A stretch of 64,000 nucleotides of DNA. It comes from Escherichia coli (GTDB lineage Bacteria; Pseudomonadota; Gammaproteobacteria; Enterobacterales; Enterobacteriaceae). The stretch is from the NCBI RefSeq assembly GCF_003334385.1, contig NZ_QOWN01000004.1. One strand, given 5' to 3'. Under the pieces are notes generated by a model that made no database searches, was not told where the DNA came from, and worked only from the letters and a program-made list of their open reading frames with translations. Shown piece after piece: positions 43,896 to 44,282 of this stretch (the first letter of the stretch is position 1; each line of letters opens with the position of its first letter). The position numbers and the translations under genes were made by a program.

Positions 43896-44282
43896 ATGCG
43901 TAAAAGCCTGTTAGCTATTCTTGCAGTCTCCTCGTTGGTATTCAGTTCGGCGTCGTTTGCCGCTGATCTTGAAGACAATATGGAAACCCTCAACGACACT
44001 TTAAAAGTGGTCGAAAAAGCCGATAACGCGGCGCAAGTCAAAGACGCGTTAACGAAGATGCGCGCCGCAGCGCTGGATGCGCAAAAAGCAACGCCGCCGA
44101 AGCTCGAAGATAAATCACCGGACAGCCCGGAAATGAAAGACTTCCGTCACGGTTTCGATATTCTGGTTGGTCAGATTGACGACGCGCTGAAGCTGGCAAA
44201 TGAAGGTAAAGTAAAAGAAGCGCAGGCTGCCGCAGAGCAACTGAAAACGACCCGCAACGCCTATCACCAGAAGTATCGTTAA
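43896..44282 (+). CDS. cybC: Soluble cytochrome b562 (apparently intact, with signal peptide)
   Basis: 128 aa, [64 protein letters not shown]...NAYHQKYR. Confidence 0.93.

Follow-up and report, generated by a model that had tools for sequence, protein, structure and literature searches.

The window analysed here, a 64,000-nucleotide stretch of Escherichia coli DNA (contig NZ_QOWN01000004.1 of assembly GCF_003334385.1), carries on its plus strand an uninterrupted open reading frame of 128 codons, running from an ATG to a TAA stop at positions 43896-44282, as read from both the list of open reading frames and the sequence. In identical genomes RefSeq names this sequence cybC (WP_001232255.1), the gene encoding pre-cytochrome b562. 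It is preceded by pmbA (also called tldE; 42361-43713, plus strand) and followed by the convergent nrdG (44327-44791, minus strand) and then nrdD. The order pmbA-cybC-nrdG is the RefSeq arrangement in every E. coli genome examined, and with pmbA upstream and convergent nrdG-nrdD downstream the gene thus stands in its conserved context. Directly upstream of the start codon, a putative Shine-Dalgarno sequence (AAGGAAGTGA, 43883-43892, plus strand) was read from the sequence and is the same in E. coli B REL606. It agrees with the Shine-Dalgarno consensus at nine of ten positions, which was rated as strong, and 6 nt separate the end of its GGAAG core from the ATG of cybC. An earlier note on this DNA, made from the letters alone, had described cybC as intact and full-length with a signal peptide; the 128-codon frame lies at exactly those coordinates, and its translation is the one quoted there.

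The encoded protein scored 190.5 bits against the NCBIfam equivalog NF011632 'cytochrome b562' over profile positions 1-127 of 127, compared with a curated cut-off of 130 bits, and 114.4 bits (E = 4.5e-33) against Pfam PF07361 (Cytochrom_B562) over model positions 1-102 of 102. A score above the equivalog cut-off together with a match to the whole Pfam model places it among the soluble cytochromes b562. A phmmer search of the PDB aligned it end to end with 9tmp_A, a 128-residue pre-protein entitled 'Soluble cytochrome b562' (E = 1.3e-76), while residues 23-128 aligned to residues 1-106 of the solved chains 1apc, 1qpu and 256b (E = 2.4e-63). [quoted passage not shown] Hundreds of further PDB entries were matched because BRIL, the thermostabilised apocytochrome b562 to which membrane proteins are fused for structural work, was derived from the same protein. 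Unlike the CybC of the window, BRIL is an engineered haem-free fusion module and represents no natural allele.

The closest well-studied relative is the CybC of E. coli B (REL606 WP_001232240.1; PDB 256B, 1APC and 1QPU for the mature protein and 9TMP for the pre-protein), which is named as UniProt P0ABE7 in a proteomics study (PMC6561927). It has the same length of 128 residues, and its signal peptide, haem ligands and pmbA-cybC-nrdG context are identical to those of the window. Apart from a few synonymous differences, the two alleles are distinguished by the conservative changes N35T and I39V (N13T and I17V in mature numbering). The comparison with the E. coli B protein proposed in the earlier note therefore bore out the shared full length but not identity of sequence, since the window protein matches the native pre-protein 9tmp_A at 126 of 128 positions and has T35 where 9tmp_A has N35, and V39 where it has I39. 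Thr35 is encoded by an ACT codon at 43998-44000 (plus strand) and is Asn in E. coli B, K-12 and ST131 clade C, and Val39 is encoded by a GTC codon at 44010-44012 (plus strand) and is Ile in E. coli B and ST131 clade C. Both changes lie away from the haem ligands. By residue masses they should make the mature apoprotein about 27 Da lighter than the canonical form, for which an m/z of about 11,783 is given in PMC6561927. T35N and V39I have been listed among the substitutions that mark the ST131 pandemic clade (PMC6561927), and T35 and V39 of the window protein are known natural variants.

The first 22 residues (43896-43961, plus strand) are identical to residues 1-22 of 9tmp_A and have the make-up of a Sec signal peptide, namely a basic n-region (R2 and K3), a hydrophobic core and small residues at positions -3 and -1 (S20 and A22). 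The mature chains of 1apc and 256b begin at residue 23 of the window protein with ADLEDN, and the cleavage site is therefore anchored after Ala22, where the pre-protein of the window strain would presumably be cut as well. The remaining 106 residues (43962-44279, plus strand) correspond, by alignment to the solved chains, to the mature four-helix-bundle cytochrome b562. Within them, the codons for Met29 (mature Met7; 43980-43982, plus strand) and His124 (mature His102; 44265-44267, plus strand) were read from the sequence, and both residues are invariant in an alignment of the window, B, K-12 and O166 alleles. In the cytochrome b562 structures, mature Met7 and His102 are the axial haem ligands.

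Given these features, a pre-protein of 128 residues would be translated from the ATG at 43896, exported via the Sec pathway and cut by signal peptidase I after Ala22. The resulting periplasmic four-helix bundle of 106 residues would bind one non-covalent haem b via Met7 and His102, and would serve as a small one-electron carrier. Export, cleavage, haem b binding and electron carriage are established properties of cytochrome b562. The protein has been classified under 'electron transport of unknown function' (PMC6561927), and it is dispensable, because K-12 lives without it and a cybC deletion in T7 Express is viable (PMC13041623). The term 'functional' is used here solely in the sense of being able to make the haem protein.

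In the K-12 strain MG1655 (NC_000913.3), cybC (b4236) is flagged as a pseudogene at 4459488-4459855. Alignment of the window with MG1655 and with a K-12 derivative showed that 26 bp, GTGAGCAATGCGTAAAAGCCTGTTAG, present at 43889-43914 on the plus strand of the window, are missing from K-12. With this segment K-12 has lost the final G of the GGAAG core, the spacer and the start codon ATG, and also codons 2-6 plus the first base of codon 7. The MG1655 pseudogene feature begins exactly at the first base past the deletion junction. The K-12-type junction, AAAAAAGGAA directly followed by CTATTCTTGC, does not occur in the window. The statement in the earlier note that cybC is a disrupted pseudogene in MG1655 was thus confirmed by the record and by the deletion, and the K-12 frame to which the window was compared is neither identical nor intact, lacking as it does the 26 bp that include the ATG. 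In other respects the K-12 pseudogene is the same gene: it occupies the same locus between the same flanking genes, and its remaining 121 codons are 98% identical to the window, from which the residual frame differs at N35, S122 and K125 besides the missing 26 bp.

A 71-bp probe spanning the K-12 deletion junction was matched in full by 355 of 5426 complete E. coli genomes. All 60 carriers among the matches listed (of 355) are K-12 laboratory strains, including derivatives of MG1655 as well as C600, J53, DH5alpha, DH1, RR1, NCM3722 and HST04. Judged from these 60 of the 355 carriers, the 26-bp deletion appears to be confined to the K-12 lineage. The restriction of the junction to 355 of the 5426 complete genomes also bears out the earlier statement that other E. 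coli strains encode the full 128-residue pre-protein. The soluble cytochrome b562 of Salmonella (PDB 4ER9) is likewise a full-length pre-protein, differing from the window CybC by about 20 substitutions (E = 8.5e-66) and having a near-identical signal peptide. Because Salmonella has the same full-length signal peptide, the intact form is ancestral in the enterobacteria and the K-12 form derived.

What remains of the gene in K-12 is still an open frame of 121 codons starting with ATT, and the first conventional start codon within it is a TTG, which would give a product of 115 residues. In neither product is the basic n-region of the signal peptide left, and from the 115-residue one most of the hydrophobic core is gone as well. 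The NCBI automatic pipeline (PGAP) annotates the truncated allele of K-12 derivatives as 'cybC: cytochrome b562', a 121-residue protein (WP_023649327.1) starting at the ATT. When the 121-residue K-12 product was looked up by exact sequence, no match was found in the protein collection; the query was an uninformative one, in that its first residue was Ile and not Met. As a separate observation, the same deleted cybC is presented as a normal coding sequence in the K-12 derivative AML001_ev03 (1743-2108 of the retrieved locus) and as a pseudogene in NC_000913.3 (1789-2156 of the retrieved locus). The description 'pseudogene in K-12' is therefore valid for MG1655 in its curated record but does not extend to every K-12 record.

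It might be argued from such records that the contrast with K-12 is merely one of annotation, that K-12 makes the protein from an alternative start and that the intactness of the window frame consequently says little about function. The PGAP naming of cybC as cytochrome b562, with no pseudogene flag, in K-12 derivatives would fit this view, as would the openness of the residual frame for 121 codons from ATT and the availability of the TTG-start frame of 115 residues. Yet the deletion takes away the start codon together with the 3' portion of the Shine-Dalgarno sequence and the signal peptide's basic n-region; the distance from GGAA to the ATT is just about 3 nt; and, with most of the hydrophobic core gone, the TTG product would hardly be exported. 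The curated MG1655 record calls the gene a pseudogene, and cybC is listed with the genes whose expression in REL606 far exceeds that in MG1655 (PMC3446290). Trower (1993), in the form in which that work is cited in PMC13041623, reported that the disruption prevents expression of cybC in K strains. An explanation by annotation alone is accordingly regarded as very unlikely. Positions 43896-44282 are best read as the soluble cytochrome b562 gene, cybC, in its intact and ancestral form, a reading to which we assign a probability of about 0.93. The allele had already been catalogued and the contrast with K-12 already published, the difference between K-12 and other E. coli having been known since 1993 (Trower, 1993), so that this cybC holds nothing new.

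Whether the ancestral allele is expressed may be judged from its upstream region. From the stop codon of pmbA through codon 17 of cybC, E. coli B REL606 and the window are the same base for base, a stretch comprising 196 nt upstream of the gene and its first 17 codons and including the intergenic repeat described below. In REL606, cybC was found among the genes that are highly expressed irrespective of growth condition, unlike in MG1655 (PMC3446290). Native red cytochrome b562 has also been reported to co-purify with an anti-BRIL Fab produced in BL21-Gold, Rosetta, C43 and T7 Express (PMC13041623). The window thus shares its upstream region with REL606, whose lineage produces cytochrome b562, and expression of cybC from the window locus is therefore likely. 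The earlier note had called the allele functional; as an inference this is well supported, the Shine-Dalgarno sequence, the ATG, the signal peptide and both haem ligands being intact and the upstream region being that of REL606.

Most of the spacer between pmbA and cybC, that is, the upstream or leader region of cybC outside the gene itself, is taken up by an intergenic repeat at 43748-43878, an imperfect palindrome of about 127 bp with an RNA fold of -63.8 kcal/mol (z = -8.67). The repeat is ERIC-like. At this site 1514 of the 5426 complete genomes (28%) lack it, as does strain PK8217, while about 72% have it, and blastn found a median of three copies per genome. In size, palindromy, intergenic position and presence or absence among strains it resembles ERIC (IRU) elements. 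The match to the ERIC core is only suggestive, the alignment score of 31 comparing with a mean of 16.9 (sd 3.0) and a maximum of 31 among shuffles, for a core rebuilt from primer sequences. No exact-type ERIC core with three or fewer mismatches was present in the window, and an Rfam scan of 43600-44450 gave no match at E <= 1. None of the records examined annotates a feature at 43748-43878, and a literature search returned no paper linking ERIC with cybC or pmbA.

A scan for sigma-70 consensus promoters across 43600-44450 found none, the pmbA-cybC spacer included. The promoter of cybC may lie within or upstream of the palindromic repeat, or the gene may be transcribed by read-through from pmbA. 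The lack of a consensus promoter and the very stable palindrome filling most of the spacer could also be taken to mean that the frame is intact but silent, the repeat for instance blocking or terminating transcription so that no cytochrome b562 is made, and the absence of the repeat from 28% of genomes indicates that it is not required. This possibility is considered highly improbable in the face of REL606, whose upstream region is identical down to the repeat, and of the B-lineage strains, in which cybC is strongly expressed and from which the haem protein has been obtained. The repeat might act as a leader or stability element, in which case the amount of cytochrome b562 made would depend on whether a strain has it. 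This idea is considered unlikely. If true, it would amount to a natural expression polymorphism at cybC.

On the other side of cybC, a hairpin with a 14-bp stem lies between the convergent cybC and nrdG at 44291-44322 (-23.3 kcal/mol, z = -6.12). It is terminator-like, with no clear T run on either strand, and was not called by the terminator scan; it may be a terminator shared by cybC and nrdG. The scan itself, covering 43600-44450, returned three terminator-like matches, each of them on the minus strand, a number not above that obtained from shuffled sequences. Some E. coli carry a gene pair for a RelB/DinJ antitoxin and a RelE toxin between cybC and nrdG, as in JNE21-009 (1126-1648 of the retrieved locus). 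This relBE-type insertion is missing from K-12, from REL606 and from the window, in which the equivalent site is at about 44283-44326.

The significance of the intact cybC is very small beyond annotation hygiene. An intact cybC start is a quick and reliable marker of non-K-12 sequence, and automatic annotation of K-12 derivatives still says 'cytochrome b562' where the curated MG1655 record says pseudogene. Native b562 is known to contaminate anti-BRIL Fab preparations from B strains (PMC13041623). As b562 is both the parent of BRIL and a contaminant of Fab preparations, knowing which hosts have an intact cybC has some practical value.

The earlier note had also taken the intact gene to indicate a non-K-12 background. 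When the window was compared with 68 kb of MG1655 (4414000-4482000), 54,373 aligned columns contained 1115 mismatches (97.9% identity), and four structural differences were observed. Moreover, many wild isolates, among them B-1109, ECCHD184 and 1283, match the 24 kb around cybC at about 100% identity, so that the background is indeed other than K-12. A K-12 derivative in which cybC had been repaired by recombination or engineering was likewise considered, and the pmbA protein of the window is in fact identical to that of K-12 (WP_001162171.1). This candidate was already refuted by the alignment to MG1655 and is given next to no probability, in view of the 1115 mismatches over 54 kb, the presence of a 9.4-kb island that K-12 does not have, the absence of ytfI and chpSB, and the 24-kb stretch shared almost unchanged with wild isolates.

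The 9.4-kb island, at 4403-13841 of the window, stands where MG1655 has about 1.1 kb containing yjfZ. Its genes, all on the minus strand, encode a TRAP transporter of the DctP/DctM type, an FAD flavoprotein akin to fumarate reductase and aspartate oxidase, a CoA-transferase, an enoyl-CoA hydratase and a short-chain dehydrogenase. At 13573-14244 the window has an intact reading frame for a TetR-family protein of 223 residues. Homology of this frame to MG1655 begins only at 13842 and corresponds there to the annotated ytfA pseudogene (b4205, 4427694-4428095). The K-12 ytfA thus looks like the 3' remnant of a TetR regulator, and would be a second K-12 pseudogene that is intact in the window.

Among the other structural differences, the ytfI gene of K-12 (about 1.2 kb) is absent at 23640-23645 of the window. 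The K-12 toxin-antitoxin pair chpS-chpB (about 0.6 kb) is likewise absent, with about 130 bp in its place at 33306-33435. The yjgL-argI region, at 60502-63101, is 91% identical to MG1655 with many gaps, compared with about 98% elsewhere. In REL606, a hypothetical protein and argF are annotated in this region.
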